In this document: positions 29,532 through 58,860 of the stretch, piece by piece
How positions within the stretch are numbered: position 1 is the stretch's first letter
Layout of the letters: every line of letters starts with the position of its first letter
DNA from: Eledone cirrhosa
Taxonomy: Eukaryota
Assembly (NCBI GenBank): GCA_964016885.1
Contig: OZ024741.1
Location: 230,950,001 to 231,014,000 of the forward strand
Reading direction: 5' to 3'
DNA length: 64,000 nt
Program-made: the position numbers and the translations under genes
The notes under the pieces: generated by a model
The model's database searches: none
Told to the model about the DNA's origin: nothing
What the model saw: only the letters and a program-made list of their open reading frames with translations

Positions 29532-29541
29532 CTGGTCCACC

Positions 29542-29593
<52 letters not shown>

Positions 29594-29769: not shown

Positions 29770-29851
<82 letters not shown>

Positions 29852-30387: not shown

Positions 30388-30390
<3 letters not shown>

Positions 30391-30412
30391 AGTTATGTAT
30401 ACACTTTTTCAG

Positions 30413-30556
30413 AATGCAAACCCGGATATTACGGACTTATGTGTGAAGATAATTGTATAGATTGTGTAGACATGGCATGTGATAGTTTTAATGGGAAATG
30501 TCACTATGGTTGTAACTCAGGAATGGAGTGGGATGTCACAAGTAAAAGATGCAAAG
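30413..30556 (+). CDS. EGF-like (MEGF/CED-1/SCARF-type) exon 1: ECKPGYYGLMCEDNCIDCVDMACDSFNGKCHYGCNSGMEWDVTSKRCK
   Basis: ttttcAG| and |GTAAGT, 144 nt, phase 1-1, 8 Cys, no stop codon. Confidence 0.85.
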
Positions 30557-32132
30557 GTAAGTAAACTCTTCGTTGGGAAGATATTAGTTTTTACCTGGCC
30601 GTACTATACATGCTGTGTTTCGGAAGAGTTGTTAGAGTATAGAACAAAATGTCTTGGGGCACTTGTTCAGATTCTGTATCCATCTAGGGCTGAAATTGTT
30701 TAAGAATTTTGATGACATACGTGATGGCAATATTTGTTTCGGCAATACGCATTCTGAGCTTACATACCATAAATCCTATTAGGTAAGTGAGATGTAAAGT
30801 TTCACTTGGTTCATCCCAACCTGGCACTTGGTTGCTTTTAGCAGAGTTTATTCTCTTAGAAGAAATTGAACCTGCCTCTGATTTCACGATACATTCACTG
30901 GTATAATAAGTCATTTAGTGATAGTTAAACTTACTCTTCTCTGTTAACACAAGTCGCTGATTCTTTTGCGTTCCGTTGTGTCTGATCGTCTGAGTAAGGA
31001 TAACTTACAACTTTATCTTGTAAGTCCGGGAAACCTTGACATGGATCATCGGCTCCATCTTCCATGCTTTGATTAAGCAAAAAGAAGAAAAAATGTGGCA
31101 AAACATAGTTTATAAAGAGAGCTCCGCAGAAATCATCACTCTGATAACATTTTTATCTCCTTTTGAAAGCAATACACTTTACTTACATCATACAATTTAG
31201 CAAGTATAATATATTGAGTCGCTAAACCAAGTAATATAGAGGCTAATCCAATGCATCACAACCCGTAATTCGTTCTTCTGCTGTTGCAGTTGCATCTTGG
31301 AGACGTTCAATTCATCAATTATTTTTAATGTCGTTGATCTGGTAGACCGAATATACGGTCAGCCTGGTAGAACCTTAGTTCTGCCATTATTATTTATAGC
31401 AGTTGTGATTTTCTCGCCACAAAATTTATTTATTTATTTTGTTTTCGTAAAATATGTTCTCCAGGTGATCTTTTGTTATCTTTCTGAGGCATATTTGATG
31501 GAACACATTTAGCTTTCTGGCAATCTTTGCTGTGTTTTCAGATCACAGTGGCAGACTGAGCTGTGTGGAGAATGAATTTGTTGTATAGAGAAATGTTGAT
31601 ATCTGCACTCATTGTTGAGGCTGATCAAACAATGTGCATTCACTGGAACACATTTACCGCCTCACTAATTCTGCTAATGACGACCACTTCATTGTTGCTA
31701 TTGTTGGATCACCTCACTGCGGTTTCCTAATTGGTGTTATTGCCCACCATAATCAAATAACCCAGATTTGTCTGTTCTCTCCATGGAATTCATTGGCTGT
31801 TTCCACCATATCTGTGCGCACCTGTATGTGTTGTTGCATATATGAGTTTTTAATTGTTATCTAGCAAAATTATCCCGTTTATTTAGGCATACGCAATCCC
31901 TTTGAAAGACATTAGTTTGTCAATCGGTATGTGGTCCGGAGAAGTCTGAAGCGATTTGTGTATATCTGAGAGATTCCTCCTCTCGAAAAATAGTCAGTAA
32001 TTATGAACTTTGACATAAAATGACCTTCTATTGTGCCCGAAAGCTATCCCTTCTAGCCTTGCTAAGCTTCCAATGGATAATATCTGTATATATATATATA
32101 TATTCATGATAGTTGTATATTCTCTTTCACAC

Positions 32133-32276
32133 GATGCAAACCCGGATATTACTGATTTATGTGTAAAAGTAATTGTACTGATTGTATAGACATGGCATGG
32201 GAGAGTTTTATTGCTAAATGTGACGATGGTTGTAACCTACTTTTGGAGTGGGGTGACGAAATTAAAAGATGTAAAT
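32133..32276 (+). pseudogene. EGF-like pseudo-exon
   Basis: 144-nt homolog with acceptor AG>AC, an in-frame TGA, one Cys>Trp and donor GT>GA. Confidence 0.85.
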
Positions 32277-32854
32277 GAGAGTGATATTTTCGTTGTGAAT
32301 ATATTACTTTTTACCTGGTCGTTCTCTAAATGCTGTGTTTCGGTAGAGTTATTAGAGTGTAGAAGAAAATATCTTGGAGTACTTGTTCCGTTTTCTGTGT
32401 TCATCTATGAGTGGAATATCTTTTAGAATGTTGATGACATGCGTGGTGGCAATATTTATCTCCGCATGATGCATTCTGAGCCTACATTCCAATATATCCT
32501 ATTAGGGTGAATTGTTCTAAAATGTTCACTCAGTTTATTTCAGCCTGTTCTTTGGTAGCTTTTTGGAGAGTTTAGTCTGTTACAAGGATTTGAATATGTC
32601 TCTGGTTTCACGATACATCCATTGGTATAGCAAGTCAACTTAGTGATAGTTAAACTTAATCCTTCTCCCAGTTAACAATCAGCATATGGACCGGTTTGTG
32701 TATATCTGACAGCCCCCTTCTCTCGGAAAACCCTCAGTAATCATGAACTATGACATGAGTGGACCTTGTATTGTGCCAGAAAGCTATCCCTTCTAACGTT
32801 GCAAAGCCTCCAATGGAGGATCTCACTATGATAAATGTGTATTCACTTGCACCG

Positions 32855-32983
32855 AATGCAAACCCGGATATTACGGATTTATGTGTGAAAATATTTGTAC
32901 AGATTGTAGAGACATGGCATGTCAAAATTCTATTGGTTGTATCAAAGGTATGCATTGGAATCGCACAATTGAAACATGCAAAG
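32855..32983 (+). pseudogene. EGF-like pseudo-exon (closest to exon 56967)
   Basis: Acceptor CAG>CCG, donor GT>TT, 15-nt deletion; shares GMHWNRTIE with exon 56967. Confidence 0.85.
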
Positions 32984-33086
32984 TTAAGTGAAATTTTCGT
33001 TGGGAAGATATTAATTTTTACCTGGTCGTTCTAGAAAAGTTGTATATCGGAAAGGTTGTTAGAGTGTAGAGCAAAATGAATCTGTA

Positions 33087-36000
33087 TCAGCAGCAGGGAC
33101 CTGGCTGTCAACCAAATACTGCTGGTGTCGGAGGAAGAAGATGAAGGAAAGGGACCAGAACCAACTGGATGAAATAATTGAATAGAACTGTTATGCAATG
33201 TTACCTGAAGAGTAACCCCAAGGAAAAAGGCTAGAGGAAATGGATGCATAACATCTGGAACGAGATTGGTCTATTTAAATTAGATGAACAAAAATTGGCC
33301 GGGCAAGCTCGGGTAATAAGAACTAATGGGTGGATAAGCGAGCTGGAACTGGAGGAACTGAGTTGAGAGATTAGGTTGGAAATGGAGAGAGGAGTATGCC
33401 AGGCAAACGAGCCAGTGGGAAGTAAAGGTGAAGAGGTTGAGAGAACGGAGGAACCATCCGAAGCAGACAATTATCTGAATGCTGAAATAAATAATACCTG
33501 GAACAAAGATACGGCCATTGAGGAGATGAATGCTGACGGGCTAGGACAAGATTTGGTTGATATCCTAAACTTAGTGGTAGATGAATTGAACAATGATAGT
33601 GGGAAACCGATGAACCTAAGATTTGTAGACAGGAAACAGTTAAAAGAAACAACAGCTAAGGTAAACAAAGTCATCCCATACCTTGAGGCGAGGAGCCTTC
33701 ACCAGTGCAACAATATCCACAAAGCAACAGCAAATGGGGTGAGGAAACTACTTGGCATAAAACCGAGAGGAAACAACAAACAAGAAAAATCAGAACCTTG
33801 GTGCAAGAAACGACTGAATGGTCAAATCAGGGAAATGAGAAATAACATTGGAAAGCTTGAGTCCCTACTGAATGGGACATTAAAAAACATAGACACTAAA
33901 ATTAGACTGGAAATAAAGTACAGAACTAGGAGGAAAAAGCTAAATATTATCATAGAGGAACTGAAGCAACGCATTGTAGCAAAGAGTGCAACAATTAGGC
34001 GATACGAGAGCAGAGTCAGTAAGTATAGACATAACCGCATGTTTGACAACAACCAGAAGTTGTTTGGACAGGATGAAGGGAAAGAAAGAGGCAACGACTT
34101 GATCTCTGAGGCGGAACAAACTAAGACATTCTGGAGAGGAATATGGGTGCAGGATGTTAAACATAATGACCAGGCAGTGTGGATTGAGACAGTACAAAAG
34201 GAGATTAGTGAACAGGCACACCAACAAACTGATTTGAGTATCACAGTTGAAATTCTTAAGAGGCAGCCCCCAAAACTAACCAACTGGAAATCACCAGGCC
34301 AAGATGTTGTGCAGGGGTATTGGATTAAAAATATAACATCCCTCCACCCGAAACTGACAACCATGTCACAATGACAGCTTGATGTCAGGTGAGGTACCAG
34401 AGTGGTTGAAAAAAGGTACCACAGTTCTGGTAATGAAATACCGAATCAAGGGTAATGATGTTACCAACTATAGACCTATCACATGTCTGTCCGTAATTTG
34501 GAAACTGTTGACAAGCATTGTGTCTGAGGAAATCTACCATCACCTCCACACAAACAACTTGTTACCGGACGAACAGAGAGGATGCCGAAAGAAGTCCCGT
34601 GGTACAAAGGACCAGTTACTTATTGATAAGATGGTAATGAGGAATTGCAAGAGGAGACACACTGGTCTTGCCATGGGATGGATAGACTACAAAAAGGCAT
34701 TTGACATGGTGCCTCATTCTTGGATCACCAAAAGCCTAGAGATCTTCAAGGTGGCACATAACATCAGACAGTTGATGGGCAAAAGTATGCAGTCCTGGAA
34801 AACAGAGATAACATCAGCTAGAGAATCCTTGGGAGGCGTGAAGATCAAGAGAGGTATCTTCCAGGGAGATAGTCTGTCCCCTCTGTTGTTTGTCGTTGCC
34901 CTGATTTCCCTGACCATTATACTGCGAGAGGTGAAAGCAGGATACAAGTTGGGAAAGGGAGAGCTTACCATCAATCACCTCCTCTTCTTGGACGATCTTA
35001 AGCTCTCGGGAAGAGTGAGAAGGAGTTGGATGCGCTTGCTGACACTGTCCGTATTTTCAGCAATGATATACGTATGCAATTTGGTATTAGTAACTGTGGA
35101 GTCCTTGTGATGAAGAGAGGTAAATTGAGCAGAAGCAACGGATCCAGGTACCGACAGGTGAGATGATAAAGGAAATTGACACTGAAGAAGGATACAAGTA
35201 CTTGGGTGTTCTGGAGGCTGATGACATCAAGAACAAAACAAATGAAGGAATTGATAAGATCTGAATACATTCGGAGAATAAGGAGCGTATTAAAGTCACA
35301 TCTGAACAGTAGGAATGCCATAAGTGCAGGAAATTCCCGAGCTGTGTCTATTATCAGTTACAGTGCGGGAATTCTGAGATGGAATGTTGCTGAACAAAAA
35401 GAAATGGATAGGCAGACTAGGAAGCTATTGACTATCTACAACATGTTCCACAAGAGGAGTGATGTCGATAGACTCTACTTAAGGAGATCTGAAGGTGGAA
35501 GAGGTCTTATCAGCATAGAGGACTGTGTTCAGATGGAGAAAAACAACCTACACAAATTCGTAACTGATAGTAAGGAGCCAATGTCCAGAATTGTATTGAA
35601 GGAGAGGACAATAGACCAGGGGATGTCCCAGGAGGAAATAACAAGGAGAAAGAGCACCCTTCATGAACATTCCCTTCATAGTACCTGTTTTGAGAAAACT
35701 GAATTCAGAGATCCACAGACATGTACTGGTTGAAAAGAGGAGACCTTAAAAACGTTACAGAAGGAATGCTAATGGCTGCGCAAGAGCAGGCCCTTAAAAC
35801 AAAGTGGTTGAAACACCATATTTACAAGGAGGAGGCTAGCCCAATGTGCAGGTTCTGTGGAGTGAGAGAGGAGCCTGTGGCTCACATTGTATCCGAGTGT
35901 AAACAGCTAGCCCAGACTCACTATAAAGGCTGGAGATATGATGTGATGGGCAGGGTGATCCACTGGCACCTATGCAAAGTAAACAATTTACCACATTCTG

Positions 36001-36496
36001 AGAAGTGGTATAAGCATAAGCCGGAGTCGGTGATAGAAAATGATCAGATGAAGTTGCTGTGGGGTTTTAGGATACCGACGGACAAGAAACTTGAACACAA
36101 TAGACCTGATCTGCTGGTTTTGGACAAGGAAAAAAGATCGTGCCTGATTGTGGATGTGGCCTGCCCATTCGACACGAGAGTGAAAGAGAAGGAGAGGGAG
36201 AAAATTAACCGATATCAGGACTTAAAGTGGGAGGTAAAAAGGATTTGCAACTGCCATGAAGTCAAAGTGATCCCGATTGTCATAGGCGCAATAGGTACTA
36301 TGTCAAAAAGTTTCCAGGGATGGTTAAAGAAAATTCGCCCCGCCTCGCTTTTTGGAACGCTTCAAATGGCATGCTTGCTGGGAACAGCAAGAACCCTCCG
36401 ATACGTCCTGAATATCTGAGGTTGTAGGTAAAAGCTTGATGTTCATTTCAACAAACTTTCCAGTTAAATAACATAAATGACTGAGACTCAAAGAAC
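33087..36496 (+). mobile_element. R4/Dong family B, copy 2 (degenerate)
   Basis: Paralog of 9330-12598; RT 34379-35110, CCHC/RLE 35721-36419; (AAT)n tail. Confidence 0.92.
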
Positions 36497-36543
36497 AATA
36501 ATAATAATAATAATAATATTAATAATAATAATAATAATAATAA

Positions 36544-37497
36544 AAACAACCTATACAAATACGTGACCTATAGTAAGGAGCCAATGCTCAGAACTGTACT
36601 GAAGGAGGGGACAGTAGGCCAGGGGATGTCCAAGGAGGAAATAACATCAAGGAAGAGCAGCCTTAAGAGAAAATCCCTTCATAGTACCTTCTTTGAGAAA
36701 ACTGAATTTAGAGATCCACAGGCATGGAACTGGTTGAGAAGAGGAGACCTCAAAAAGGCTACAGAAGGAATGCTAATGGCTGCGCAGGAGCAGGCCCTCA
36801 AAACGAAGTGGCTGAAGCACCATATCTACAAGGAGGAGGCTAGCCCACTGTGCAGGATCTGTGGAGAGAGAGAGGAGACTGTGGCTCACATTGTGTCCGA
36901 GTGTAAACACCTAGCCCAGACCCACTATAAGGGCTGGAGACACGATGTGATGGGCAGGGTGATCCACTGGCACCTGTGCAAAGTAAACAATTTACCACAT
37001 TCTGAGAAATGGTATGAGCATAGGCCAGAGGCGGTGATGGAGAACAATCAGGTGAAGGTGCTGTGGGATTTTAGGATACAGACGGACAAAAAACTGGAAC
37101 ACAATAGACCTGACCTGGTGGTTGTGGACAAAGAAAAAAGATCGTGCCTGATTGTGGGTGTGGCCTGCCCGTTCGACACGAGAGTGCAAGAGAAGGAGAG
37201 GGAGAAAATTAACCGATACCAGGACCTAAAGTGGGAGGTGAAAAGGATTTGGAACTGCCATGAAGTCAAAGTGATCCCGATTGTCATAGGCGCACTGGGG
37301 ACTATCTCCAAAAGTTTCCAGGGATGGTTAAAGAAAATCGGCCCCTTCACGCTTTTTGGAACGCTTCAAAAGGCATGCTTGCTTGGAACAGCAAGAACCC
37401 TCCGATATGTCCTGAATATCTGAGGCTGCAGGTAGTGGCTTGATATTCAATCCAACGGACTTCCCAGTTAACTAACATCAATGACTGAGATTCACGG
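36544..37497 (+). mobile_element. R4/Dong family B, copy 3 (5'-truncated, open CCHC-RLE frame)
   Basis: ORF 36563-37423: CRIC..HIVSEC, RHD, RPDL, KINRYQDL. Inserted in the (AAT)n tail of copy 2. Confidence 0.92.
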
Positions 37498-37530
37498 AAT
37501 AACAATAACAATAATAATAATAATAATAAT

Positions 37531-40500
37531 GTTTTCTTTATTAACCACAAGGGTTTACATAAAGTAGACATTAAGCACAGTACAGGACAATACAGGACGG
37601 TACAAATGGGCATTTGTGCGTGTAAAAAAAAACAGAGGATGTAATAAAAATAACAATGAAAAATTCCCCAATACGGGGGGAGACTTACGAGGGACATTTG
37701 TGGAGAAAGCCCATTAAAAGGCCACAGTGACCCTGACCACCAGGGCAAGTGCCCTCTCCCAGTTTTCCACCTTTAATTTACAAACACATACTCAGAGTAG
37801 GCCCATTCACTCGGGTCATACTTGCTTCTCTCACCCATCATTCAAAAATATGCTACGAAGAGAGCACTTCCCTCTCTGCCCTGATTTTCCTTTTCAAATG
37901 AAATTTGAAAAAGTTAATGAGGGCATCACCGAAGAGGTAAGTGTTCGTCTTCAGCCCTATGAAACGTGTCCACCATACTATCTTTTTCGCCATGGCAACC
38001 AGACAGATAAATACTGCCTGCCCTTCCCGGCTAAAGGAAGAGGGCGAGGCAATCCTCACGATGGACTCAGCTGATAGCTGGATCCCTCCTACACTTGACA
38101 GAAGGTGTTCGACATAAACCCACAAGTCAGCAATGCTCAGTGCGTGCAGGTTGGTTTCGTCGCCCTGCGCGCATCTCGAACATGCCCGGCTGACGCCACC
38201 TCCATGCCTGTAGAGTTTATCCCGAACTGGCAAAGCTCCTCGGTAGCACTGCCAGGCCAGGGATTTCTGGAAGTTGACCATAAGCCCCGGCCCGAATGTC
38301 CTTCCGAAGAGATAGGCTAGTTGATTTACGTCGACGCCTAGAGTTTCTCCAAGTACGTCGTCGCTCTTCTCCTCCACTAATTCTCTATAGAACACCAAGG
38401 TGGAGTTTCCACCGATCACATTGCTCGATTGGTCGAGGGCTATGAGCACCTGAAGACATCCCAGTCTCCAAGCGCCCCCTCTCGGTCTTCGCTTGACCCA
38501 GGACTGCAGCTCCGTCAAGGAGACGAGCTGGGGAAAGACGTGTCTAGCAAACGGCGACCACACCTGATCACCGTTGAGGAAGAGGTGGAGATGTCGTAGC
38601 CTGAGCGCGTGTCTGCACATCATCATCCACGGCATGCCCAGCTCTCCACGTAGCGGGTGTTGACAGCAGATGGACCGCCTGACCATCGGAGCGCGTCTCT
38701 TCCACAAAAAGCGAAAGAGCAAACGCTCCAGCGCAGTCAGGCGAGGCTTAGGACAAGGTACGACGGTCAGGCGGTAGTAGATGACGGACACGATGTACGC
38801 GTTAGCCACCTCCGCTCGACCTTTCAGGGATAGCTTCCTCTCCGCCCATTTCTCGGTGAAAGAAGCCACCCTGCTCGTCACCTCGTCCCAGTGTTTGTCC
38901 GTCTGGAGATCCGGACCGAACCAGATCCCTGGCAATTTAACCGGTCAGTCCGACCAGCGCCAGTCGACGCTGTTGGACGGCATGAACCTGCCTCTCCAGG
39001 TGCCGAGCTGCAGGCCCACTGACTTTTCCTGGTTGATTATTGCTCCTGTCACCGCTTCGTATTCTCTTAATGTAGTGCCGATCGCCTCGATGTGTTTGGC
39101 GTTCGACACCACTACGGTGGCATCGTCCGCATATGCTGACATGGATCTTCCGCATCCTAGTTCGCGCGGGACCCCCTCAACGTATCCAGTTTGTGCAGTA
39201 ATGGCTCGAGAGTCAATACGTACAAGAGGGACGAGAGGGGACATCCTTGGCGGACCGAGCGCATGATGTTGAACGGTTCCGAAAGGTGACCGTTCACTCT
39301 CACCACAGATCATATGTCTTTGTGAATGGCAGCGATCCAGCCTCTGAAGACGGGCCCAAAGCGAGCCGCCCCGCTAGGTAACGATGGTCGACCCTATCGA
39401 AAGCTTTCGACTGATCTAGATAGATCAAAGACCCACCTTGTTCGGATCCTTTCTCAGCAGCCCCACAGATCCTCGGCTCACAGAGCTGGGAATTCTCCCG
39501 TTCTGTTGCCAGTTGCAGTAGACGTCCGCTAAGAGGCCTCCAAACAAGTCTGGCATCTGTACGTAAAGTTCATAGGGCAGACCATCCAAACCAGGCGATT
39601 TATCCCTTGTGCAGCCAGTCATTTCCCCCCGTACTTCAGCGGCTGTTATCGGCTTTTCGCAACACTCCGCCTCAGTGGTCGAGAGCCGCGGCAGTCCGTC
39701 GAGGTAGACACTAAAGTCTATCCCGCGATCTGGCGCGCCGCTGCCCCCGAACAGCCGTGCGAAGTGTCGCCGAAAAGCTTCACACATTTGCCCGGGATCG
39801 AGTAGCATGCGCCCGTCCTGGACAACCAAAGACCGGATAGTGGCTTTGTTATCAGGACGCGCCTCCGCCAATCGGGCGCATTGAAGGCTTTCGTCCCCTC
39901 GTGTCTGAGAGAACGCACTCTAGCCCTGACTACGCAGCCTTCATGCTTTGCATTGAAGAATTGGTCAAGGGCCAATTTCCCCGCAGGTACGTCGGTCGCG
40001 ATGCCTTTGCTAAGCGCCTCGTCTAATTTTCTAACTAATTCTCCCTCTGCTCTATTTTTCTCTATTGCTAAAACCTAATGGACCCTATTCTAATTACTCT
40101 TTTCAGAGCAAACCACCACTTGGTGTTGACGATGGCTCCCGTCAACGCTCGCTTAACTAGTTCGCTAATCCGGTCTCTGTAGGCCTTGCGTCCTGGTAAG
40201 CACGCGTTTAGGTTCCAGTAGCCGGGTCCTCGTCTATGAAGCCGATCTAAGTCAAGCACACAGATCACGAATTTGTGGTCCGTGTAGCTGACTATCTTGA
40301 ATTGTGGACAGCCTATGCTAGACCTATCTCTTTCCCTACAAAATACTCAATCTAGATATGATCTGGATGACCCCATGCGATTTTTCCTGGTCCACATTGG
40401 CACATTCTGGAAATCCAATCGGTACCTGTCAGACAGTTCAAAACGCCTGAGCAGGTTGGTGAGACTCTTGCACACTCCTCCCCTATCCACTAATGCCACA

Positions 40501-42903
40501 CAGTCCCACCGTGCATCTAAGATCCCGTTCCAGTCGTCCACTAACACTAAAGAGCGGGACGTTCCAAGAAAAGTCTCCAGACGCCGGAAGAAATCAGGCC
40601 ACCCTGCTCTTGTCGGGGCATAGACGGCCCCTAACCTGGAAGCTTTCCCGTCTCCGCTGGTCACGTCCAGCACCACCAATTTACCTTCTGGGTCCAGGAA
40701 GATGGCTCGTATAGCAAGATGCAAACCTTTCCGAAAAAGCACAGCAACTCCTCCCCCGATCCCGGACGGCTGGGAGATGCGTACACATCGTAGTCACCGA
40801 AGATCGGTGCGAGGGCCCGTGCTTCGGAGATGGTGCATCTCGGAAATCTCCGATGACTTTGGTGAATTTTTGTTTTAGTGTCATGTAGGTTTTCTCTGTG
40901 ATGCGAGTGATTTGTATGTGTGGAGGTGGTGTGAACTTTTGGGTTGTTGTGTAGTCTTTTTCTGTGATGCTGGTGTTGTGTTGGATGTAGTGTAATAAGT
41001 GGTTGTTGTTCAAATTTAATGCTGTGTAGTGTGTATCGTTTTGGTTGTTTTGTTGTGTTTGCGTTTGTTGTGGGTTTGTTTCTGTTTCGCATTTTGTTGA
41101 CTTTTCTGTAGTAGGTGATGGTGGTGTTGGGGTTAATGATGGTGATGGTGTTGGTGTTTGGGGTGATGGGGTTGGTGATGCTGGTGTGGATGGTGGCCTG
41201 TCTGTCCTAGCTTTTTTGTTTGATAGTTTATTTGTTTCCCTCTGTATTTTGTTTTTGGAGGGGGAAGGAAGATAATTTTTTTCTTTTTTGGTTTCCTTTT
41301 TTCATTTTTCCTGATACCGTTTCCCACTCCTCGTCATCATAATCAGTCCCCAGTTGTGATAGGCCGGGGAGTGGAAAATCCTACACAGGCGTTAGTTTTG
41401 GTTGTGGCGTGGTGGATGGTGTATGTGCTGGTGCTAGTTCTGAAGCGTTGGGTGGTGGTGGTGTTGGTTTTGATAGTGTTGCTGGAGTTGTTCCTGTTAC
41501 AGTTGCTTCTGTTGTTGCTGCTACAGTTGTTGCTGCCATCTCTGCTGCTGCTGGTGTTGATGGTTGAGTACTGGGGTGGGTAGGAGAGGTGGCCGCAACC
41601 TTTTAGCCTGAGGGCAGAAAGCCCTTAGGTGGGTTCCTTCACTACAAACGACACACCTAGGCCTTCTACCCTCGACAATTACGGTGAGGTGGCTGCCGTC
41701 AGTGAGGTCTATTACCTCTGGGATCTCCTCAATGCTTTTTTGGTCCGCTTGGATCAGGAGCTCCATCCAAGATCCGGACCAGTTCTCCTGCTTTTCTTTC
41801 GCTATTTCGATTATCTTGGTGTTGGCTTCGATGCCGGCGAGGACGGCAGCTATTAGCCAGGGAATTTCGATGGCCGGTGGAACGTGGGTGACCCTGATCT
41901 TTACGATTCTCTGGCCACAATAGCTTGGGACAAGTGTGAAATCGTCACTTCTTAATGGGGCCATGGAGTGTTCTCTAGCCTCCTGTGGTGTTTCAAAGAA
42001 CACGTCCACGCTTCCATACTTCTGCCTACGTCTGATGTGTTTTTTTTTGCCCACACATGTCCCAAAGCTTTTTGGATTTCTGATGTGGATGCCCGTTCCA
42101 CTCGGCGCGAGTTTATATTAATTGTTCGATAAGACACGGTGCATAAGCGCCGATGCTCCATTTTATTAGGTGGGGGTGTGAGGCTGACCCTGTACCCATC
42201 TTTCTTTACCATTGTTTTGGCTTTTTCTAATTCCTCCTGTGCTACATGAAATGCTTCGCACTGTTTTGCTACTCTGGCAAAACTCAGGGTGGTTTTCTTA
42301 ATGTCATTGTTGCTGTTCTTGTTATCGTTATTTTTGTTATTATTAATTTTAGTTTCAGTTGTGGTGGTGGTGGTGGCGTCAGTGGTATTCGGTGTGGAAG
42401 TGTTCATTTTGGTTGAATTCATTTCGATATCACGAGTTAATTTATTTTTTTCTTTTGTTTCTGTTGTCGCGGTGTGGTGGGGGTAGGGATCGTCGCGGTG
42501 GTGGTGGTGGTGGCGGCTTTAACACCTGCAGTCATTGGTAATGGCGGGAAATGAATATCTGACTGAGACAAATTTAAAATATTGCTACTGCTTATATTTT
42601 TTTTAGTGTTGGCAAACGTAGTAATATTTACAATGGTGGTGTCGGTGTGAGGTGTTAGTTTGTGAGAAAGGAGTGACTCTGAGTCAGCCATGAAATTTCA
42701 AAGAAAAATTTTTGTTTGATAATTATAAAAGTTAAATTTTGGGCTCAAGGCCCCAATCTTTTTGGGTGTCCTTTTCAGATAACAATGTATGTGCACTTAT
42801 ATACAATTAACCATACAATTTTCTATGAATGGCAATTTTGAATAACTGAAAATAACAAACCTTTGCGGAGCTCACGATTATACGAGTTACTACATAGGGC
42901 GCC

Positions 42904-42904
<1 letters not shown>
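37531..42904 (-). mobile_element. Tx1 family 1, duplicate copy (ORF1/ORF2 junction deleted near 40835)
   Basis: Paralog of 12631-18187; RCVVCSEGTHLRAFC, endonuclease and YADD; (TTA)n at both ends. Confidence 0.92.
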
Positions 42905-42942
<38 letters not shown>

Positions 42943-42944
<2 letters not shown>

Positions 42945-43847
42945 TACGTGGTGGATAGAGTGTTATGGAATCGCTCCCGTAAGTTTTGAATTTTTACATA
43001 TTGTGATAGAATAATTCTTATTACAAATGGGACATAAGGCACCAGCTTAAGCTCTCAGGAAGTGAGTATCTGTATTTAATTTTGTATTAGAAATTTTATA
43101 TTCAAAAGAGTAAATGGTTACTATTGGAAGAAAACCCCTCAGTGTACACTCAATACAACAAACAAATAATTTCACCACCACCGCCACCACAACCAACAGC
43201 ACCAACACCACCACCACCACCACCACACAGGTGTGTGGTTTGTGGCAAAGGAACCCACCTAAAGACCGTCTGCCTTTAGGCTAAAACGTTGAGGCCACCT
43301 CTCCTACGCACCGTGACGCAACCATCAAATCCACCAGCAGCAGAAATGGCATCAACAACAGAAGCAACTTAGCAGCAACATCCCCAGTAACAGTAGCAAA
43401 ACCAACACCACCACCACCACCACTCACCGTGCCAGAATTAGCACCAGCGCCTCCACCATCCACCATGCCACAACCAAAACGAACGCCTGTGGAGGATTTT
43501 CCACTCTCCGACCTATCCCAATTGGAGCCAGATTGTGACGATGAGGAGGAATGGGAAATGGTATCAGAAAAAAAGAAAAAGAAAAAAAGAACACAAAAAA
43601 GAAAAATCCGCTTCCTTCGCCCTCCAAAAACAAAATGCAGGAGGAAACAAATAAGCAAACAAACAAAAAAGTTAAGACAGCTATGCCACCACCCACACCA
43701 GAATCACCAGACCCATCACAACAAACACCAACACCATCACCATCACAACACCACAAAAAGCACCAAAAAGTGAAACAGAAACAAACCCACAACAAACGCA
43801 AACAAATCAACCCAAACGATACACACTACGCAGCATTAAATTTGAAC
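42943..43847 (+). mobile_element. Chimeric Tx1 5' fragment, duplicate
   Basis: Paralog of 18215-19149. Confidence 0.8.
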
Positions 43848-44145
43848 AAGGGCGGTGAATTGACAGTATCGGTAGAGGGTCGGACGCCATGCTTTGACGC
43901 ATAGAGTTACGGCCCTTGCCATTCTGAGTTCAAATCCCGCCGAGGTTAACTTTGCCTTTCATCCTTACGGGGTCGATAAAATAAAGTACCAGTAATGCGC
44001 GGGGTCATTGCTGGCCTTGTGCCAAAAGTATAAACAATTATTATTATCTCACGGAGTTGAGAAACAGAGCCCCAGCTATAAACTGGGATAATTGCCGGTC
44101 CCTGACAAAAGCAGAATCAACCACCATCATCCTCAGCATCTACAA
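43848..44145 (+). mobile_element. SINE (43848-44047) followed by a hypermutated SINE fragment (44048-44145)
   Basis: Paralog of 19150-19445. Confidence 0.85.
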
Positions 44146-44927: not shown

Positions 44928-47513
44928 CTAGCTAAATTTTGTGGTGTATCGCATGAGGTGGAGATTGTCGTGTATGGGCCTGGATGGGATTGCGCAAGTT
45001 TGCGCCTCCCCAACAAAATCCTCGACGACAAGCGCCAATCTCTTTGCTAACACCTTGACCAAAATCTTAAACTCTGTGTTGAGCAGAGTTATGGGCCTGA
45101 AGTTGTCTAATGTATCCCTCTTGTTCTCGTCTTTCCCTATCAGCGTTACCACTCCCCTGCTCACAGAACTGGGAATACTCCCATTCTGCTGCCAGTTGCA
45201 GTATAGTGCTTCGAGGAGATATGAGAACAAGTCTGGCATATTTACATAACGCTCGTAGGGCAGTCCATCCAAACCGGGTGACTTGCGCCTCATGCAGCCG
45301 ACAATGGCAGCCTGAATTTCGGCTGAAGTAATCGGCCTTTCGCAGCGCTCAGTGTCGACCGAGGAGATGCGCGGCAAACCGTCTAGGTAGGGACTGAAAT
45401 CCGCTACTCTCTCTCTGACACACCATTCTCCCCGAACAACCGAACAAAATGATGGCAAAAGGCCTCACACAATCGCTTGGAATCGCTTATCTCGTGTCCG
45501 TCTCGGTCCGCAAAAGACAGAATCGTGGTTTTATTACCACGCTGCGTCTTAGCCAGGCGGGCCCATCGAACGGCTTTGGTTCCCTCGTTTCTCAGTGCGC
45601 GCACCTTGGCTCTGACAATGGAACTTAGTGTTTCGCGTTTAAGAAATGGTCTAATGGCATTCTCGCCGCTAGAACGTCAGTTGCAATGCCACTACAAATA
45701 GCCTCGAGTAACTTATCTACCAGTTCCCCCTCCTTTCTATTTTTCTCTAATGCTAGGTCTTTGCTGAACTCTATCGAAGATACTCTAATCTCTCTTTTGA
45801 GATCCCCCAACCATCTGTTGTTGATGATCTCTGTCAACTTTTGCTTAATTAAATTGTAGATCGGTCCCTGCAAGCCTTACGTGCCGGAAATGACATGTTC
45901 AGCTTCCAGTAACCCGGTCCCAACCTACGCGTTTTATCTAGGTCGACCATAGAGATCACAGATTTGTGATCTGAATTGGCGACCGTTTTAAAAAGTGGGC
46001 AGCCTACACTATTTCTATCTATTTTCCTAATGAAGTACCTGTCTATATACGATCTAGTTGACCCCATGCGCTTGGTCCATCTCCATACTAGCGCATTGGG
46101 GAAAACAAGTCGATACCTGTCAGACAGTTGGAACTGGCTGATTAGGTGCTTGAGGCTTTTGAACACCCCCCCCTCCGGTCCTATCAGCTATTCCCACACA
46201 ATCCCAGCGTGCGTCTAAGATGCGGTTCCAGTCCCCCTCTAACAGTAATGGGCGAGACGTACCCAGAAAGGACAACAGGCGCCTAAAGAAGCCCTGTCTT
46301 CCGGCCCCTGTAGGGGCGTAGACGGCCATCTTCCCTACTGCTCACATCAAAGACTCAACATGCCGTGCGGGTGCCGGAAGATCGACCTTACAGTCTTCTC
46401 TCTCTGTCCTTTTGATATCCAGGAGGTTAGTGTCTGTCCCTCCTCGATTACGCATCCCAGGAGCCACCATATGTTCATTCCTGGTGGGATGCTGGGAATG
46501 CGGATCTTTACTGTCCTTTTACCCATGTAGGACGGGTGCATGATAATGCGTTCCGTTCTGCAGGGGTTCACCGAGTGCTTAATAGCAAAAGCCTCTGTTT
46601 TGAACAGTACCGAGATGGTACCGAACTGTTTGGCCCTTGCTTTATACTCTATGCCACTTCCGATGCACTCCAAACCAGTCTCGAGATCTGCTTGGCTGGC
46701 AAGTTCCACTTTGCGTGTCTGCACCGAAATGCATCGAAAATACACCGTACTCCTTTGCATGGGCGCTATTGCCCCGTCCGGGATGGTCAGGTTTGCCCAA
46801 GACTTCTACCGTTTAATTAACCTCCATGCCTGGGCCAACTGTTCGTCTTTATCAATATTCAATAAGTGCTTTGATTTTGCTGCTGCAGCCAAAGTGGTGC
46901 CTATGTTGCTCTTCATGTTGGTGTTGTCGGTCTCGCTGTTGTTGTTGGTGTTGTTGTTGCTGTTTTGTTTGTTGTTGCTGCTGCCACCGCCATCCGTGTT
47001 TACATTGAAGTTGTCGGTGTTATGATCGTTGTTGTTCTGAGTTATTGTTGTGGTGATTGTTGTGGTGGTGGCGGGGGTTGCAGTGGTGGTGTTGATGTCG
47101 TATTCAGTTGATAGAGCTCCTAACACAGAAGGGAGCGGTCCGATTGTAGCTTTTGAGTTTTGCCTTCACATCCAGTGGAATGCTCGACAGACATTTCTGT
47201 AGTAGTCGTAGATGTGGTGAGATCTACAGTGGCTGCTTTTTGACTTTTGACCTGAACGTTGTTTCCTGTTTCAAGGTCGAAAATGTGTCTTTTTTTTTTG
47301 GTGGGGAAGCGATTTTCTTCGAAGTTTTTAAAAATAAATCTGAATATTCGGGCTTAAAGCCCGAATATTGAAAGGTCTCCCTTATTTGAAACCAATGTGG
47401 ATACCTTATGTTTCGTTAACGACAAGAAAATACAAAAAAATGATACTTTAAAACAGCTTAAAGTTACGAACCTTTTCCCCCGCAGACTTGTACGTCTTCA
47501 TATATGTGCATTC
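44928..47513 (-). mobile_element. Tx1 family 2, duplicate (large deletion joining ORF1 to the endonuclease near 46390)
   Basis: Paralog of 20547-24639 with the same DNLHLMRY|TTKFS breakpoint. Confidence 0.9.
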
Positions 47514-47521
47514 AATAATAA

Positions 47522-48405
47522 TAAGGCACTTGGCTTAGCCCTCAGGAAATGTGGACCAATAATATCCTATTATATCGCTCAAATATTCAATTTTGTATTA
47601 TAAATTTTATATTCAAAAAAGAAAATGGTTATAAATGGAAGACAATCCCCTCTGTCTACACTATATGGAACAGCCAAATAACAGCAATTTCACCAGCACG
47701 ACAACCTGGATCCCCCACCTATCCCACCACCCCTCTGTGTACATTAAATACAACAGCCAGATAAGGGCAATTTTACCACCACCACGACCAATCCCAGCAT
47801 AATAATAATAATTTCTATTACTGTCTCTAAAAATGTTTAATTAGAATATTAAGGAAATATGTCAACATATATATTAAACATAGGCGACAAACCGCATAGA
47901 TATACAGATCAAAGAAACGCATACTATCTACAGTCTATTCAAAATAACTAAGTAGCGATAACGCCATAATTTCAGTTACCGCCCCCCATCACTCCATCAC
48001 TGCTACCGCTATCCCATCACCGCCGCCACCATTACTACCCCACTACCTTCGGCTTAACTTAAGAAAGGGGAAGGTGGCAGTGTCACTAGAGAAGGCTAGT
48101 AAAAGATATAAATAGACTAGCAAAATATATATATAGACTGACGGTATCACTAGACAGGGCTAGCAAAAATATAAATAGACTGACTTAGAGACCCGGTCAA
48201 ACGTCAACGACTATGACACTCCTGGATCCCCCCTTCCCCAGCAACGATAGAAAAAGCCCCAGAACCACCACCGACATAGCCAACAACAACAACAGGCAAC
48301 TTCAGCAAAATGTATATTAAATTATTAATAATAATTTCATTTTTAAGCCAGGCAGTTCTCACATTAAGGAACCACTCATGATAATAACAATTTAAAAAAC
48401 AAAAA
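47522..48405 (+). mobile_element. Tx1-derived non-autonomous segment, copy 3
   Basis: Near-identical to 24651-25540. Confidence 0.6.
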
Positions 48406-48412
48406 AAGGAAA

Positions 48413-51400
48413 CCCCGTGACCAAGAAATACCGGGATGGCGGCCAATGGGGAATAACCGTGTCTTTAGGGGAGGACGACCCGTCTAGTCTTGGTAGACAC
48501 TCTTCCTAGGAGTGGTAACACGAAATGATTACCCCTTGGCGTTTAAGGATAACACGCAAAAAAATAAAGTCAATGTCAAAAGATAAAATCTCATACTGGA
48601 TCGGCCGTCACTCAGGTCAAAAAGGGCCACCTCCCTCAGAGAGGAACCAGACTGGGGTCGAAAAATCAGCTAATGGTTCAAACCTCCCCATCAATTCGGA
48701 GCTGGAGACCTCCCATACCGGTAAATTGTAACACTTCGAATCCCAGGGTTGGGGCGGATTCACTGACAGCAGAACAAATTAATGAAAGGATCGAAACAAT
48801 GGAGGAAGTGCATGATCGATATGAAACTCAAAATGAAAACAATGAGATCGTAAATGATAAAGAAATGAATGAGAATGAACTTGCCAACTTGAAGAATCAA
48901 ATTATGATTGAATGGATGAAAATGAAAGAATCTGACATGGGGGAACGAGACACCCTCCCTAAGATCCAGAACTCCAAACAGAACCAAATGATAATACACA
49001 AGACTAACATAATTCTCAAAAACATTATCATCACAAACAAACTAAACATTACTGATCTAAATCATATCTATTATGCGTCGGTTAAAGTCACCACTCACTT
49101 ATGTGGAGTGAAAATGAAAAAAACAAAGGAATTCCCACAAGCAACCTATTTGGCAAGATAACATCAATCGCCAGATAAACCTTCTCCGATCTGGCATAGA
49201 AATGTTACCAAACTACAAAGTAGGTGAACATGTTTATCAAACTAAACTTAGAAAATAGAAAGGAAAATACAGTACAAAATAAACAAGTGATAGAGACATG
49301 CTGATAGAAATAATAAAGAAAAACGAGTCGGCCAAAGCTGCTCGTATAAAACGCTTTGAAAAACGATCTAGATTCTATAAGGACAATAATATGTTCAAAA
49401 ACAACCAAAGAAACTTCTACAGAAAAATTCGCAAGTCAACAATAATTGATAAATCAATACCACCCAAGGAAGAAGTTAAAGAAGACTGGGAAAAGATCTG
49501 AGCCAACGAAAAAGTCCATAGTATACATGCCCCATCGATAGACAGACAAATGAAAGATACAGCTCACCTCGAGGAACAACCATGGGAAATATAACAGTTG
49601 AACAGTTGCGTTTGGCTCTTAGAAAAGCCAGCAAATGGAAATCCCTGGGAAAAGACAATAACCAAATTTTTGGATAAATGCCTTCACAGAATCTCATGAG
49701 CTGTTAGCCCAACTTTACAATGAAATGGTTAAGGAGCCAGCAAAATTACCATCATGGCTTGTTAACGACATTACATTCCTACTTCCGAAGAATGATGAGA
49801 CAAACAATCCCCAAAATTACAGACCGATAACTTGCTTGACGTCAATATATCAAATTTTAACATCACTCCTATCTGAATGTACATATGATCACCTGATAAC
49901 AAATGATCTATTTCCCAATTAGCAGAAAGGGTGTAAACGAGGCTCATATGGTTGTAAATATCAGCGTTTGGTTAACAAAATGATACTGGAAGACTGTCAT
50001 GATAGACACAAATATCTATCAATTGCTTGGATATATTACAAAAAAGCATTCGATAGTTTGCCACACAGTTGCATTGAAAAATGTTTAGAGATTTTCAAAA
50101 TAACTCCTGTTCTCAGGAGGTACCTGTCACTCAGTATGAACACATTGAAAACGACACCCCTTTTGAATAGTGGGAAAAACACAGTGGAAGCTGGAGAATT
50201 TAATATTAATTGTGGAATTTTTCAGGGTGACTCTTTATCACCGCTTTTATTCTGCATCGCACTTATACCATTAAGTAAAACTGTCAATGAAACAAAACAT
50301 GGATATAAATTCTATGACAAAACCATTAATCACTTGTTCTACATGGATGACCTGAAACTATTTGCAAAAAATGATGAACAATTGCAAGGGCTATTATCCA
50401 CTGTGAAGCAGTTCAGTGATGACATTAAAATGGAGTTTGGATTAGATAAATGCGCCAAAGCAACGTTCAATGAGGAAAGCAGATGAAAAGTTCAGACATT
50501 AATCTTGATCGGGGGAATGTGATAAGAGAACTTGATCAAGAAGAAACATACAAATATCTAAGTGTTTTTGAAGGAGACGGTATCAAGCACTCGACAATGA
50601 GGGAAAGGATAAGTAAAGAATGTTACCGCAGAGTAAGAGCAATCTTAAGAACGAAATTGAACGGAAGGAATAGGATTGATGCAATAAACACGCTTGCCAA
50701 ACCAGTAGTAACCTACAGTTACAATGTCATCAACTGGTCAATCACAGAGATCCGTAGGCTGGATACACAAATTAGAAAATTCTTAACCATGTACATAATG
50801 CATCACACTAAGGCAGATTCAGATAGAATATATCTCCCTAGGAATGAGGGTGGACGTGGATTAAACCAGTTAAATACTGCGTTGAAAACTGCAACAATTG
50901 GATTATCTACATATCTAAGGGAACGACATGATTGGATGATCAAACTCGTTTTGAAACACGAAAGCATCAAAAGATCATACTCCATTACACAAGATGCACC
51001 AAGATACAGTAATGGACTAACAATTTCAGAAGTTCCATTTACTGCTGAAATGAAAAACACTGAAAACGCAAAGCAGGTAAAAGTAATTGCAAAGAAAGAA
51101 CTGCTACAAAAACTAGTTAAGAAATGGCAAGAAAAGCTTCTGTGTGAAAAATACCCAGAAAGAGTTAAGAATCCTGATGTTGACAAAAGCTTAACCGATC
51201 AATTGACTGAAATCGGAGACTGAAGGACTAATTATATCAGCACAAAATCAGTGCCTGCCAACAAAATATTACCAAGCCAACATAATAAAAAATGGATGCA
51301 ACCCCTTATGCCGTGTATGTAAAACTCAACCAGAGACCATTGATCATATAATTTCAATGTGCAGTCCTACAGCTCCAACCGAATACCTAAACAGACACGA

Positions 51401-52019
51401 CAGAGCTGCACAATACATACATTGGATAATGTGTAAGCATTTTGACCTGCCCCATCAAAAGAATTGGTGGGATCATCAACCACCTCCCATACTTGAAAAG
51501 GATCACTTCTCAATCTTGTGGAACATTAGTATCCAAACTGACCAACAAATAGATGCAAATAGACCTGATATAATACTGAAGCAGTTTAAAAAGAAGGTAT
51601 GCCTGCTAATTGATATGTCCGTTCCAATAGACAAGAATGTATCTATAAAAACATTTGAAAAATTGAGCAAGTATAATGACCTGGAGTTAGAAATTAGAAA
51701 AATGTGGGAATTGAGATCTAAAACAATACCAGTGGTTGTAGGCGCTCTGGGAATGACACCTAAGGGTTCTAATGATTACTTATCGCAAATCCCAGGAAAC
51801 CCGCGTATAGGAGAAATACAAAAGAAAGTACTAATGGGAACTGCCCATATACTAAGGAAGATTCTGTCAATATAAGTACAACCCAAGTCTAAACACCTAA
51901 AGATGCATGTGTGTCTATGTATGTTCTTTTTTGTACATGGCGGACCTTGTTTTCTCTTGAGGTCACTGGTTGTGACTTGGTGATAACTCGTATGAACATA
52001 AGGCAAGATAAATGCAACT

Positions 52020-52020
<1 letters not shown>
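48413..52020 (+). mobile_element. R4/Dong family A, copy 4 (degenerate, ~320-nt deletion at 48720)
   Basis: RT 49968-50486, RLE 51357-51875, (TAA)n tail at 52021-52050. Confidence 0.92.
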
Positions 52021-52052
<32 letters not shown>

Positions 52053-52082
52053 TATATAATAGTTGTGTATACAATTTTACAG

Positions 52083-52226
52083 AATGCAAACCCGGATATT
52101 ACGGAATTATGTGTGAACATAATTGTGTAGATTGTATAGACATGGCATGTGAACGTTTTAATGGGGAATGTCACAATGGTTGTAACTCAGGAATGGAGTG
52201 GGATGTCACAATTAAAAGATGTAAAG
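52083..52226 (+). CDS. EGF-like exon: ECKPGYYGIMCEHNCVDCIDMACERFNGECHNGCNSGMEWDVTIKRCK
   Basis: ttttacAG|, 144 nt, |GTAAGT, 8 Cys. Confidence 0.88.
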
Positions 52227-53230
52227 GTAAGTAAACTCTTCGTTGGGAAGATATTAGTTTTTACCTGGCCGTACTATACATGGTGTGTTTCGGAAGAGTT
52301 TTTAGAGTGTAGAACAAAATGTCTTGGGGCACTTGTTCAGATTCTGTATCCATCTAGGGCTGGAATTGTTTAAGAATTTTGATGACATACGTGATGGCAA
52401 TATTTGTTTCGGCATTACGCATTCTGAGCTTACATACCATAAATCCTATTAGGTAAGGTGAGATGTAAAGTTTCAGTTGGTTCATCTCAACCTGGCATTT
52501 GGTTGCTTTTAGCAGAGTTTATTCTCTTAGATGAATTTGAACCTGCCTCTGATTTCACGATACGTTCACTGGTATAATAAGTGACTTAGTGATAGTTAAA
52601 CTTACTCTTCTCTGTTAACACAAGTCGCTGATTCTTTTGCGTTCCGTTGTGTCTGATCTTCTGAGTAAGGATAACTTACAACTTTATCTTGTAAGTCCGG
52701 ACAACCTTGACATGGATCAGTGGCTCCATCTTCCATGCTTTGATTAAGCAAAAAGAAGTACAAATATGTGGCAAAACATAGTTTATAAAGAGAGGTCCGC
52801 AGAAATCATCACTCTGATAACATTTTCATCTCCTTTTGAAAGCAATACACTTTACTTACATCATACAATTTAGCAAGTATAATATATTGAGTCGCTAAAC
52901 CAAGTAATATAGAGGCTAATCCAATGCATCACAACCCGTAATTCGTTCTTCTGCTGTTGCAGTTGCATCTTGAAGACGTCCAAGTCAGCAATTATTTTTA
53001 ATGTCGTTGATCTGGTAGACCGAATATACGGTCAGCCTAGTAGCCTTATTTATAGCAGTTGTGATTTTCTCGCCACAACATTTTTTTTTCGTAAAATATG
53101 TTCTCCAGGTGATCTTTTGTTATCTTTCTGAGGCATATCCCTTCTAACTATCCCTTCTAACCTTGCAAAGCTTCCATCGTACGATATCTGTGTATATATA
53201 TTTATGATAAATGCGTATTCTATTTCACAG

Positions 53231-53374
53231 GATGCAAACCCGGACATTACGGATTATTGTGTGTAGATAGTTGTACAGATTGTATAAACCAGGCATGTGA
53301 AAGTGTCTATGGGAAATGTGGCGATGGTTGTAACGTAGGTTTAGTGTGGGATGAAGTAATTAAAAGATGTAAAG
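53231..53374 (+). CDS. EGF-like exon: GCKPGHYGLLCVDSCTDCINQACESVYGKCGDGCNVGLVWDEVIKRCK
   Basis: tttcacAG|, 144 nt, |GTAAGT, 8 Cys. Confidence 0.88.
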
Positions 53375-54993: not shown

Positions 54994-55137
54994 AATGCGA
55001 ACCCGGACATTACGGATTAATGTGTGTAGATAATTGTACACATTGTATGAACCAGACATGTGAAAGTGTCTATGGGAAATGTGACGATGGTTGTAACCCA
55101 GGTTTTGAGTGGGATGAAGAAATTAAAAGATGTAAAG
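54994..55137 (+). CDS. EGF-like exon: ECEPGHYGLMCVDNCTHCMNQTCESVYGKCDDGCNPGFEWDEEIKRCK
   Basis: tttcacAG|, 144 nt, |GTAAGT, 8 Cys. Confidence 0.88.
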
Positions 55138-56729: not shown

Positions 56730-56873
56730 AATGTAAAATCGGATATTACGGATTAATGTGTGTAGAAAATTGTACATATTGTATAAACCAGACATGTGAA
56801 AGTGTCTATGGGAAATGTGACGGTGGTTGTAACGTAGGATTTGAGTGGGATGAAGAAATTAAAATATGTAAAG
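56730..56873 (+). CDS. EGF-like exon: ECKIGYYGLMCVENCTYCINQTCESVYGKCDGGCNVGFEWDEEIKICK
   Basis: ttttacAG|, 144 nt, |GTAAGT, 8 Cys. Confidence 0.88.
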
Positions 56874-56966
56874 GTAAGTGAAATTTTCGTGATAAATATA
56901 TTACATTTTACCTGGTCGTTCAATGGAGGATCACTCTCTAAGATAAATGTGTATTCACTTTTACAG

Positions 56967-57110
56967 AATGTAAAATCGGATATTACGGATTTATGTGTCA
57001 AAGTATGTGTACAGATTGTTTAGGCATCGTATGTGACATTTATATTGGTGAATGTAACAATGGTTGTGTCAGAGGTATGCATTGGAATCGCACAATTGAA
57101 AGATGTAAAG
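56967..57110 (+). CDS. EGF-like exon: ECKIGYYGFMCQSMCTDCLGIVCDIYIGECNNGCVRGMHWNRTIERCK
   Basis: ttttacAG|, 144 nt, |GTAAGT, 8 Cys; preceded by a 93-nt intron. Confidence 0.86.
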
Positions 57111-58716
57111 GTAAGTGAAATATTCGTGTTGTAGATATTATTTTTTACCTGGTCTTTCTATAAATGCTGTAGAAGTGTTCTTAGGGTTTAGAACAAAATG
57201 TCTTGGGGGTACTTGTTCCGTTTTCTGTATTAATCTAAGATTGGAATTGTTTAAGAAATTTGATGACATGATTCAAGTCAATATTTGTTTCGGCATTACG
57301 CATTTTGAGCTTACATTCCAATGTATCCTATTAGGGTGTACTGAGAATCAATCTTTCACTCAGTTTATATCAACCTGGTTTACGTTGTTTTTAGCAGAGT
57401 TAATTCTATTGCAAGCATTTGAATATCTCTTTTGTTTGAAGATAAATTCATTGGTATAACGAATCAACTTATTGATATTTAAATTGAATCATTCTTTCTG
57501 TTAACAAATTCAATAATGTTTGTTTTCCATTGCCTCTGATCTTATCTGTAAGGAGAACGTACAACTTAATCTTTTAAGTCCGGGAAGCCAGGCATGGATC
57601 ATGAGCTCTGTCTTCCATGCTTTCATTAAGCAAAAAGAAATAATATGTGGCAAACCATAGCTTATAAAGAGAGCTCCCAAGAAATCATTACTCTCATAAT
57701 ATACTTTTCATCTTCCTTTGAAATCAATACAATTTACTTGCATCATACAATTTAGTTTGCATACCACATAGAGTCACTAAACCTAGTATAATAGACACTA
57801 ATTAAAGCATCGCCAGCCGAAATTTGGTGTGCTATTCCTTTAGTTGCACCTTGGAGACGTTCAAGTTATCACTATTGTTAAGTGTTGTTAACTGGTAGAT
57901 GGAAAATACGCATAACCAGGTAGAACCTTCTTTCTGCCTTTATTACTTATAGCGGTTGTGAATTGCTCCTCGCCGAATTTTTTTATTTTTAAACTAGCTT
58001 CACCAGGAGACCTTTTGTAATCTTTCTGAGGCACCCTTGATGGAAAACATTCAGGTCTAGTGCAATTTTTGCTGTGGTTTCAAGTCGCTTTGGCATATTG
58101 AGCTGTGTGGGGAACGACTTTGTCGTATACACAAATGTTGATATCTGTGTTCATATGTAAAGGTGAAAAAAACAAAACGCATTCACTGGAACACTTTCAC
58201 AGCATTTCCAATTCTGCTGATGACCTCCAGTTCATTGTTACTTTTGTTGGATCACTTCACTGCGGCTTCCTTAAATGGTGTTGTTTCCCTCCATCGTCAA
58301 TTAAGCAATATTTAGCTGCTACAGATTTGAACTGGTTCTTGCTATACAGGTGACGTTGACAAACTTGTCTGTTCTCTCCTTGGAATTCATCGGCTGCTTC
58401 CCCCATGTCCGTGACTGTGTGCGTTGGTGCATATCTGAGTTTAAAATTGTTATTTTGCCAACTTTTCGCGTTTGTCTAGGCATACGCAATTCCTTTCAAA
58501 GACATAAGTTTGTACATAGGTCTATGGTCCGGAGAGAGCTGAAGCCGGTTGTGTGTCTCTGGTAGCCTCCGTCACCCGGAAAGCTGTCGGTAATCATGAA
58601 GTTTGACATGAGTTGACCTTTTCCAGTGCCCAAAAGCTATCCCTTCTAACATTGCAAAGCTTCCATCGTACGATATCTGTAAATATATATTTATATGTAT
58701 GTATTCTATTTCACAG

Positions 58717-58860
58717 AATGCGGACCCGGATATTATGGATATTTGTGTAAACATGTTTGTTCAGATTGCATGGACGAGGTATGTGAAGGTTACTATGGGA
58801 AATGCGATGGTGGTTGTAAACCAGGTTTGATGTGGGATGAAGATATTAAAAGATGTATAA
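58717..58860 (+). CDS. EGF-like exon: ECGPGYYGYLCKHVCSDCMDEVCEGYYGKCDGGCKPGLMWDEDIKRCI
   Basis: tttcacAG|, 144 nt, |GTAAGT, 8 Cys. Confidence 0.88.

Follow-up and report, generated by a model that had tools for sequence, protein, structure and literature searches.

A positively selected, apparently functional expansion of an EGF-like exon in a predicted molluscan receptor gene of Eledone cirrhosa

The window analysed here is a 64,000-nucleotide (nt) stretch of the 3.0-Gb genome of Eledone cirrhosa (C2:230,950,001-231,014,000; contig OZ024741.1), around which ~1.97 Mb of neighbouring sequence was traced. It contains a tandem array of 144-nt EGF-like exons, in which nine copies are organised in repeated units of ~1.7 kb (exon plus intron) with an identity of 75-80%. 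Seven copies, all on the plus strand, are intact (window positions 30413..30556, 52083..52226, 53231..53374, 54994..55137, 56730..56873, 56967..57110 and 58717..58860, referred to as W1 and W4 to W9). Each is flanked by AG/GT splice sites in phase 1-1 and has an open frame with eight cysteines (Cys); the intron following 56730 is only 93 nt long. The two remaining copies, also on the plus strand, are dead. The one at 32133..32276 has an in-frame stop (TGA) and has lost one Cys, with AC as acceptor and GA as donor, while the one at 32855..32983, the sister of 56967, carries a 15-nt deletion removing one Cys, with CG as acceptor and TT as donor. All coordinates and counts of the intact and dead copies given in a preliminary description of the window, as well as the phase and the eight invariant Cys, were correct. 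No further copy of this type was found beyond the array's last exon, 58717, in the downstream stretches read. The introns between units are rich in indels (~2.4 per 144 nt, from 42 gap openings in five pairs of 500 nt each) and the seven intact exons have none; the array exons are therefore not a product of chance.

The 144-nt unit is distinguished by a long last hairpin, with 12 residues, including a Trp, between the last two Cys. The Pfam scan of the seven exons recovered no EGF family above threshold, and sub-threshold matches to beta-defensin and CAF1A were rejected. A homolog search with a single array exon gave no match. One unit was also modelled with AlphaFold (pLDDT 78, pTM 0.46), but Foldseek returned nothing below E = 1 and the model was uninformative. 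Among solved structures the best match was SCARF1 (8hna, E = 0.004), confined to the first 29 positions, followed more weakly by Tie2, and the neighbours in the ESM Atlas were molluscan laminin/PEAR1-like EGF clusters. The unit shares the eight-Cys repeat on 1-1 exons with the SCARF1/Tie2/MEGF10-type repeats, but its last hairpin is longer. When a profile of 28 such exons was used, 42 proteins were retrieved, 39 of them with a molluscan name, and these mostly carried F5/8-type C, EGF and protein tyrosine phosphatase (PTP) domains.

Exons in the order expected for such a receptor were found on the plus strand on both sides of the array, with open in-phase frames: signal peptide, N-terminal exons, fucolectin-type (FTP) exons, the array, an EGF stalk, a transmembrane (TM) exon and PTP exons. 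The signal-peptide exon (C2:230,794,492) is 64 nt long, with an ATG, a hydrophobic core and a phase-1 donor. It is followed by the Cys-containing and other N-terminal exons N0 (230,813,815), N1 (230,873,626) and EGF0 (230,886,588) and by two FTP exons (230,894,983 and 230,895,557), directly after which the array begins. The first FTP exon matches PF22633 (28.3 bits, cut-off 27.8), a galactose-binding/fucolectin (F5/8 type C) domain, and its best named matches are Octopus proteins with 44% identity. The stalk comprises at least 25 intact canonical EGF exons with phase 1-1 and eight Cys (231,073,453 to 231,415,939). Twelve stalk exons, 135 nt long and near-identical, recur with a 258-bp period at C2:231,112,966-231,115,938, and this tract is a very recent amplification in the stalk of the same gene. 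A single 91-nt TM exon (231,422,269) precedes the cytoplasmic exons of the first PTP domain (231.45-231.79 Mb) and one exon (231,802,445) resembling a second PTP domain, the latter being partly traced. No coding exon that was located for the gene has lost its frame. In own-genome searches with signal-peptide, N1, FTP and 144-type exons, no further lectin module was found in the interval from the array to the TM exon. Two lone intact signal-peptide first exons, at C2:231,050,176 and 231,059,851, lie between the array and the stalk and could start lectin-less receptor isoforms. PTP catalysis requires the arginine of the C-x5-R motif; in the first PTP domain of the array's gene this position is Glu (with the junction taken from splice sites); in paralogs F and G it is still Arg. 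Based on order, strand, phase and the collinearity with paralog F, the array appears to sit in a predicted single-pass receptor gene of ~1 Mb that is probably transcribed as one unit. The preliminary description had linked the Cys pattern to MEGF10/CED-1/SCARF-like receptors and to the EGF-containing receptor PTPs expanded in molluscs, and proposed that signal peptide, TM and PTP exons be looked for in the flanks; these were located outside the window, and the link to the molluscan receptor PTPs proved right.

The 144-nt unit is present as a single copy directly after FTP in paralogs A and F and in Octopus sinensis P0047 (hhalign 95%, residues 164-210), which makes the array a lineage-specific expansion of a position-specific unit. 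A regular-expression count of long-hairpin units (0/52 homologs) was discarded because the known unit in P0047 was also missed.

One step of this expansion can be followed in the window. A tandem segmental duplication of ~22 kb (9330..31494 and 33087..53138) was delimited by self-BLAST, by divergence (2.8-7.0%) and by reverse transcriptase domains. Each copy consists of an intron filled with long interspersed nuclear elements (LINEs) together with an exon, W1 in the first and W4 in the second, and this is why 30413 and 52083 are recent twins. Haplotype mis-assembly was considered as the source, but a real duplication is the likelier explanation: there is no gap, the two copies have different neighbours, and a third, older copy is partly preserved at 81-5132. 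A young LINE with an 811-codon open reverse-transcriptase frame lies at window positions 5751-8186 and is one of four copies in the window with ~90% identity. The twin exons differ at 10 of 144 nt, nine of the changes being nonsynonymous and one synonymous, exactly as listed in the preliminary description, and the first 370 nt of their downstream introns have 13 aligned differences and two gaps (3.5%), close to what was reported there. However, as evidence of selection the 9:1 count does not stand, since neutrality can give the same ratio (binomial p = 0.32). The exon divergence of 6.9% is above that of the adjacent intron (p = 0.026) but not above that of the whole duplicated block (p = 0.24). 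Taken alone, the twin pair proves little.

When all copies are analysed together the signal is much clearer. Selection tests were performed with our own codon-model code, using M0 and the comparison of M1a with M2a under three frequency models. For the seven intact exons, the Nei-Gojobori ratio of nonsynonymous to synonymous substitution rates (dN/dS, or omega) was >1 in 20 of 21 pairs, which are non-independent. M2a was favoured over M1a in every case (p = 1.3e-4, 1.1e-3 and 3.8e-4), with an omega of 3.5-4.5 on 52-69% of codons and about 30-40% of codons constrained, and M0 gave an omega of 1.75-2.13 (p = 0.084, 0.083 and 0.016). The observed value of 13.2 was not reached in any null simulation, either plain (0/18) or with a three-segment mosaic (0/18), the maximum being 6.4. 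Tree length was 0.62 for the introns (494 columns, six of the seven units, 56730 with its 93-nt intron omitted) and 1.25, 0.78 and 0.53 for codon positions 1, 2 and 3. The preliminary description had named dN/dS with more copies as a possible refutation of diversifying selection; for 27 open exons of the cluster (28 aligned, minus the copy in pseudogenic module B), omega stayed above 1 (M0 1.58-1.64, a test made somewhat liberal by M0-scaled branch lengths; M2a p<1e-8).

Comparable signals were found in other exons of the family. The FTP exons had an omega of 1.69 (p = 0.015) and the PTP exons 1.39 (p = 0.28; M2a p = 0.005). Lower values were obtained for N1 (0.96), EGF0 (0.67) and 17 canonical EGF exons (0.76; minority class, 2.6). 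Compared with their 160-nt flanks, exons were the more divergent in 11/12 FTP pairs, in all 11 TM/cytoplasmic pairs and in only 5/10 cross-module pairs of 144-nt exons. Fast amino-acid change is thus family-wide and not confined to the array, as FTP and cytoplasmic exons also outpace introns. Diversifying selection as first proposed therefore holds for all copies together, in site models and against intron and mosaic controls, and neither for the twin pair alone nor as a signal specific to the array. Fast intracellular change was also noted at C2:231,425,289-231,756,928, where cytoplasmic exons differ by 25-34% from their paralogs and the flanks by 10-14%, with frames kept.

The array can be described as a real, positively selected expansion of exons, functional in appearance, within a molluscan receptor family that is already known. 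The most probable reading is a birth-and-death expansion of one FTP-adjacent exon, whose seven intact copies would be spliced serially into a variable distal stalk, possibly with some skipping. All splice-intact (AG/GT) repeats of the gene, the seven array exons and 25 stalk exons (32/32), are open with eight Cys, and in the broken repeats the acceptor is gone in every case (3/3). The two dead copies in the window have lost all four splice sites, for which the neutral expectation is ~0.002 (a post hoc figure). This pattern favours inclusion by default. Unequal crossing-over would add or remove 144-nt units, broken copies would persist only once their splice sites are lost, and the variable surface may change under pressure from parasites or other ligands. 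A tail with Glu in place of the catalytic Arg would signal as a pseudophosphatase or act as a decoy.

Several observations weigh against serial splicing in one selected receptor. The splicing pattern is deduced from genomic sequence. Three sequence runs retrieved for the region follow the introns letter for letter and thus behave as DNA, without bearing on expression or splicing, and two skip joints in them, with only 22-28 letters on the shorter side, were set aside. In the neighbouring gene there are exons with stops (E2, E4 and the N0 of module G) in which acceptor and donor are both preserved, so skipping or decay does occur in the cluster. The stretches at 231.224-231.232, 231.242-231.298, 231.308-231.390, 232.600-232.695 and 232.735-232.840 Mb were outside the reading, with ~146 kb falling between the array and the TM exon, and the second of two 200-N gaps (230,718,114 and 231,441,867) separates the TM from the PTP exons. 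The O. vulgaris model is without a 144-type unit, which may be due to skipping or prediction error. As to selection, the overall omega of the seven exons is not significantly >1 in two of the three models, and whole-exon tree length (0.79-0.82) lies at the top of the range of 141-nt intron windows (0.45-0.81), not clearly above it. An immune role, finally, is suggested by family resemblance only.

The arrangement of the whole cluster has to be considered as well. Between 230.79 and 233.05 Mb there are eight signal-peptide-type exons (seven read, all intact, and one recognised by DNA match), three TM exons and three PTP sets. At the second locus, module B is dead, modules C and D are complete 5' modules with four and eight array exons, and module E has a signal peptide and nine array exons (two with stops) and no FTP. 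Module G, with a signal peptide, an N0 with stops and a frameshifted FTP, is followed by EGF, TM and PTP exons. Modules C and D keep all frames, with introns differing by 6-10% and with frequent indels. At both multi-start loci the module adjoining the constant region has degenerated. Behind the arrays of W, C, D and E lies sequence that matches what is found 5' of the first exon, which would indicate one ancestral 5' partial duplication. An intronic stretch with many stops and indels (window positions 59171..61428) is common to modules C, D and F, 3' of their last 144-nt exon; conserved blocks 3' of the arrays were rejected as candidate exons, being old transposon or intergenic sequence. At C2:232,203,261-232,410,800 the array exons of D and E often run directly into a second copy, 5'-truncated and without acceptor, which is fused just behind the donor.

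The cluster can be read in three ways, namely as alternative promoters that feed into one shared constant region, as modules in series, or as secreted truncated paralogs. Modules in series recall the P0043 protein, which has two lectin-EGF-type modules in one chain. For the shared constant region, it may tentatively be proposed, by analogy and at odds we regard as clearly below even, that tandem lectin-EGF 5' modules with their own promoters and selected EGF arrays are joined by promoter choice or long-range skipping to a shared stalk-TM-(pseudo)phosphatase, giving a combinatorial cephalopod receptor. This would be a third independent design of the protocadherin/sDscam type and is compatible with serial inclusion of the array exons. 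Chelicerate sDscam and vertebrate clustered protocadherins likewise have tandem multi-exon 5' modules, each opening with a first coding exon of its own, ahead of a single TM/cytoplasmic region (PMC4835542). However, only three to four starts per constant region are present here, several of them degenerate, and the domains are unrelated.

The preliminary description had raised the possibility that the array exons are spliced as cassettes or in a mutually exclusive manner. A Dscam-like arrangement, in which each transcript would take up a single exon or a small number out of the seven, diversifying a lectin-adjacent domain, could be expected from copies that are divergent and positively selected, of which any subset keeps the frame, from arrays of four, eight and nine copies in neighbouring modules, and from a position-specific exon that is single-copy in A, F and O. 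sinensis, as an array seed would be. Like insect Dscam1, the array has tandem homologous exons with variable surfaces. However, phase 1-1 is common to every ectodomain exon checked in the gene, so that the symmetry of the array is not peculiar, and the broken copies have lost their splice sites. Every exon is a self-contained repeat with eight Cys, as in a serial stalk, and not half a domain as in Dscam1, and there is no frameshift or sub-50-nt intron to enforce exclusivity, the shortest intron being 93 nt. Exclusive splicing of the Dscam1 type relies on docking/selector RNA pairing, and no such duplex was found above shuffles in four candidate docking regions (a coarse comparison with six shuffles each, the 83-kb upstream intron being only partly scanned). 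The proposal is thus not supported, and exclusive splicing is considered unlikely.

A similarly low probability is given to the possibility that the array belongs to a truncated 5' duplicate whose lectin-EGF product is secreted and stops behind the array, with the stalk-TM-PTP part driven by the two lone signal-peptide exons. The position of these exons, the match of the post-array sequence to what precedes the first exon of this gene, and the lack of a stalk or TM of their own in modules C and D would agree with it. On the other hand, the last array exon keeps a consensus donor, first exons have no acceptor and are skipped by default in splicing, and the full-length paralog F is collinear with the array's gene from FTP to PTP. 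That the high dN/dS reflects lost constraint in a decaying gene is very improbable: its PTP motifs are degenerate, pseudogenisation has affected modules B and G and, in part, E, and the PTP omega does not differ from 1, but omega is near 0 in about 30% of codons, the intact exons are without the 2.4 indels expected per pair, frame is kept in every coding exon located, and exons diverge faster than the introns beside them, an excess that relaxation alone would not produce.

Serial inclusion in a membrane receptor also agrees with the molluscan relatives, in which many EGF repeats occur within one annotated chain. The closest comparison is with the molluscan MEGF/GBD receptor PTPs, which in Biomphalaria (SudRes1) are linked to parasite resistance and show EGF loss (PMC12297450). 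These receptors (PMC12297450; LG5R subgroup 1C, PMC13712769) share with the present gene a signal peptide, a galactose-binding/fucolectin domain, multiple EGF repeats, one TM and a PTP tail, and further a tandem paralog cluster with duplications, EGF gain and loss and many nonsynonymous differences. In contrast to the snail genes, here the lectin-proximal EGF exon is arrayed with formal evidence of positive selection, the gene extends over ~1 Mb, the first PTP lacks the catalytic Arg and the 5' modules outnumber the TM/PTP regions; the likeness is drawn at the level of the family. Oyster bindin is also an F-lectin protein diversified by positive selection and change in repeat number, but in bindin, a gamete protein that is secreted and for which alternative splicing is proven, it is the lectin domain that is repeated, whereas here an EGF exon is arrayed in a receptor (PMC5712786). 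The fucose motif of F-type lectins, HX24RXD..(R/K) according to the same review, is absent from the FTP of modules W, C, D and F, and the hDGx cation motif is present. Among the literature titles and abstract openings surveyed, with few subscription papers, no receptor PTP of a cephalopod was described as having such an exon array or tandem 5' modules.

In snails, parasite resistance maps to clusters of lectin-EGF receptor phosphatases, whose diversification has been little described. At the locus studied here birth and death take place at the level of exons, and positive selection can be measured on the lectin, on the EGF units next to it and even on the cytoplasmic tail. The pattern of the array would fit an immune or recognition receptor, and sharing of a constant region, if true, would represent a new way of diversifying receptors in molluscs.

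Related sequences were also seen elsewhere in the genome. Two similar FTP-EGF-PTP paralog copies lie ~4.2 Mb apart on the minus strand (C2:257.5-257.6 and 261.7-261.9 Mb), representing either a recent duplication or a haplotype duplicate. Intronless PTP domains with open frames of 387-1254 codons occur at C22:17,643,413, C14:9,149,860-9,164,507 (three in tandem) and C10:12,086,702. Canonical EGF exons, accompanied by signal-peptide-like first exons, form very large clusters at C10:25.8-27.3 Mb and C2:310-315.5 Mb; 1254 candidates were obtained across the genome, of which 150 were scored.

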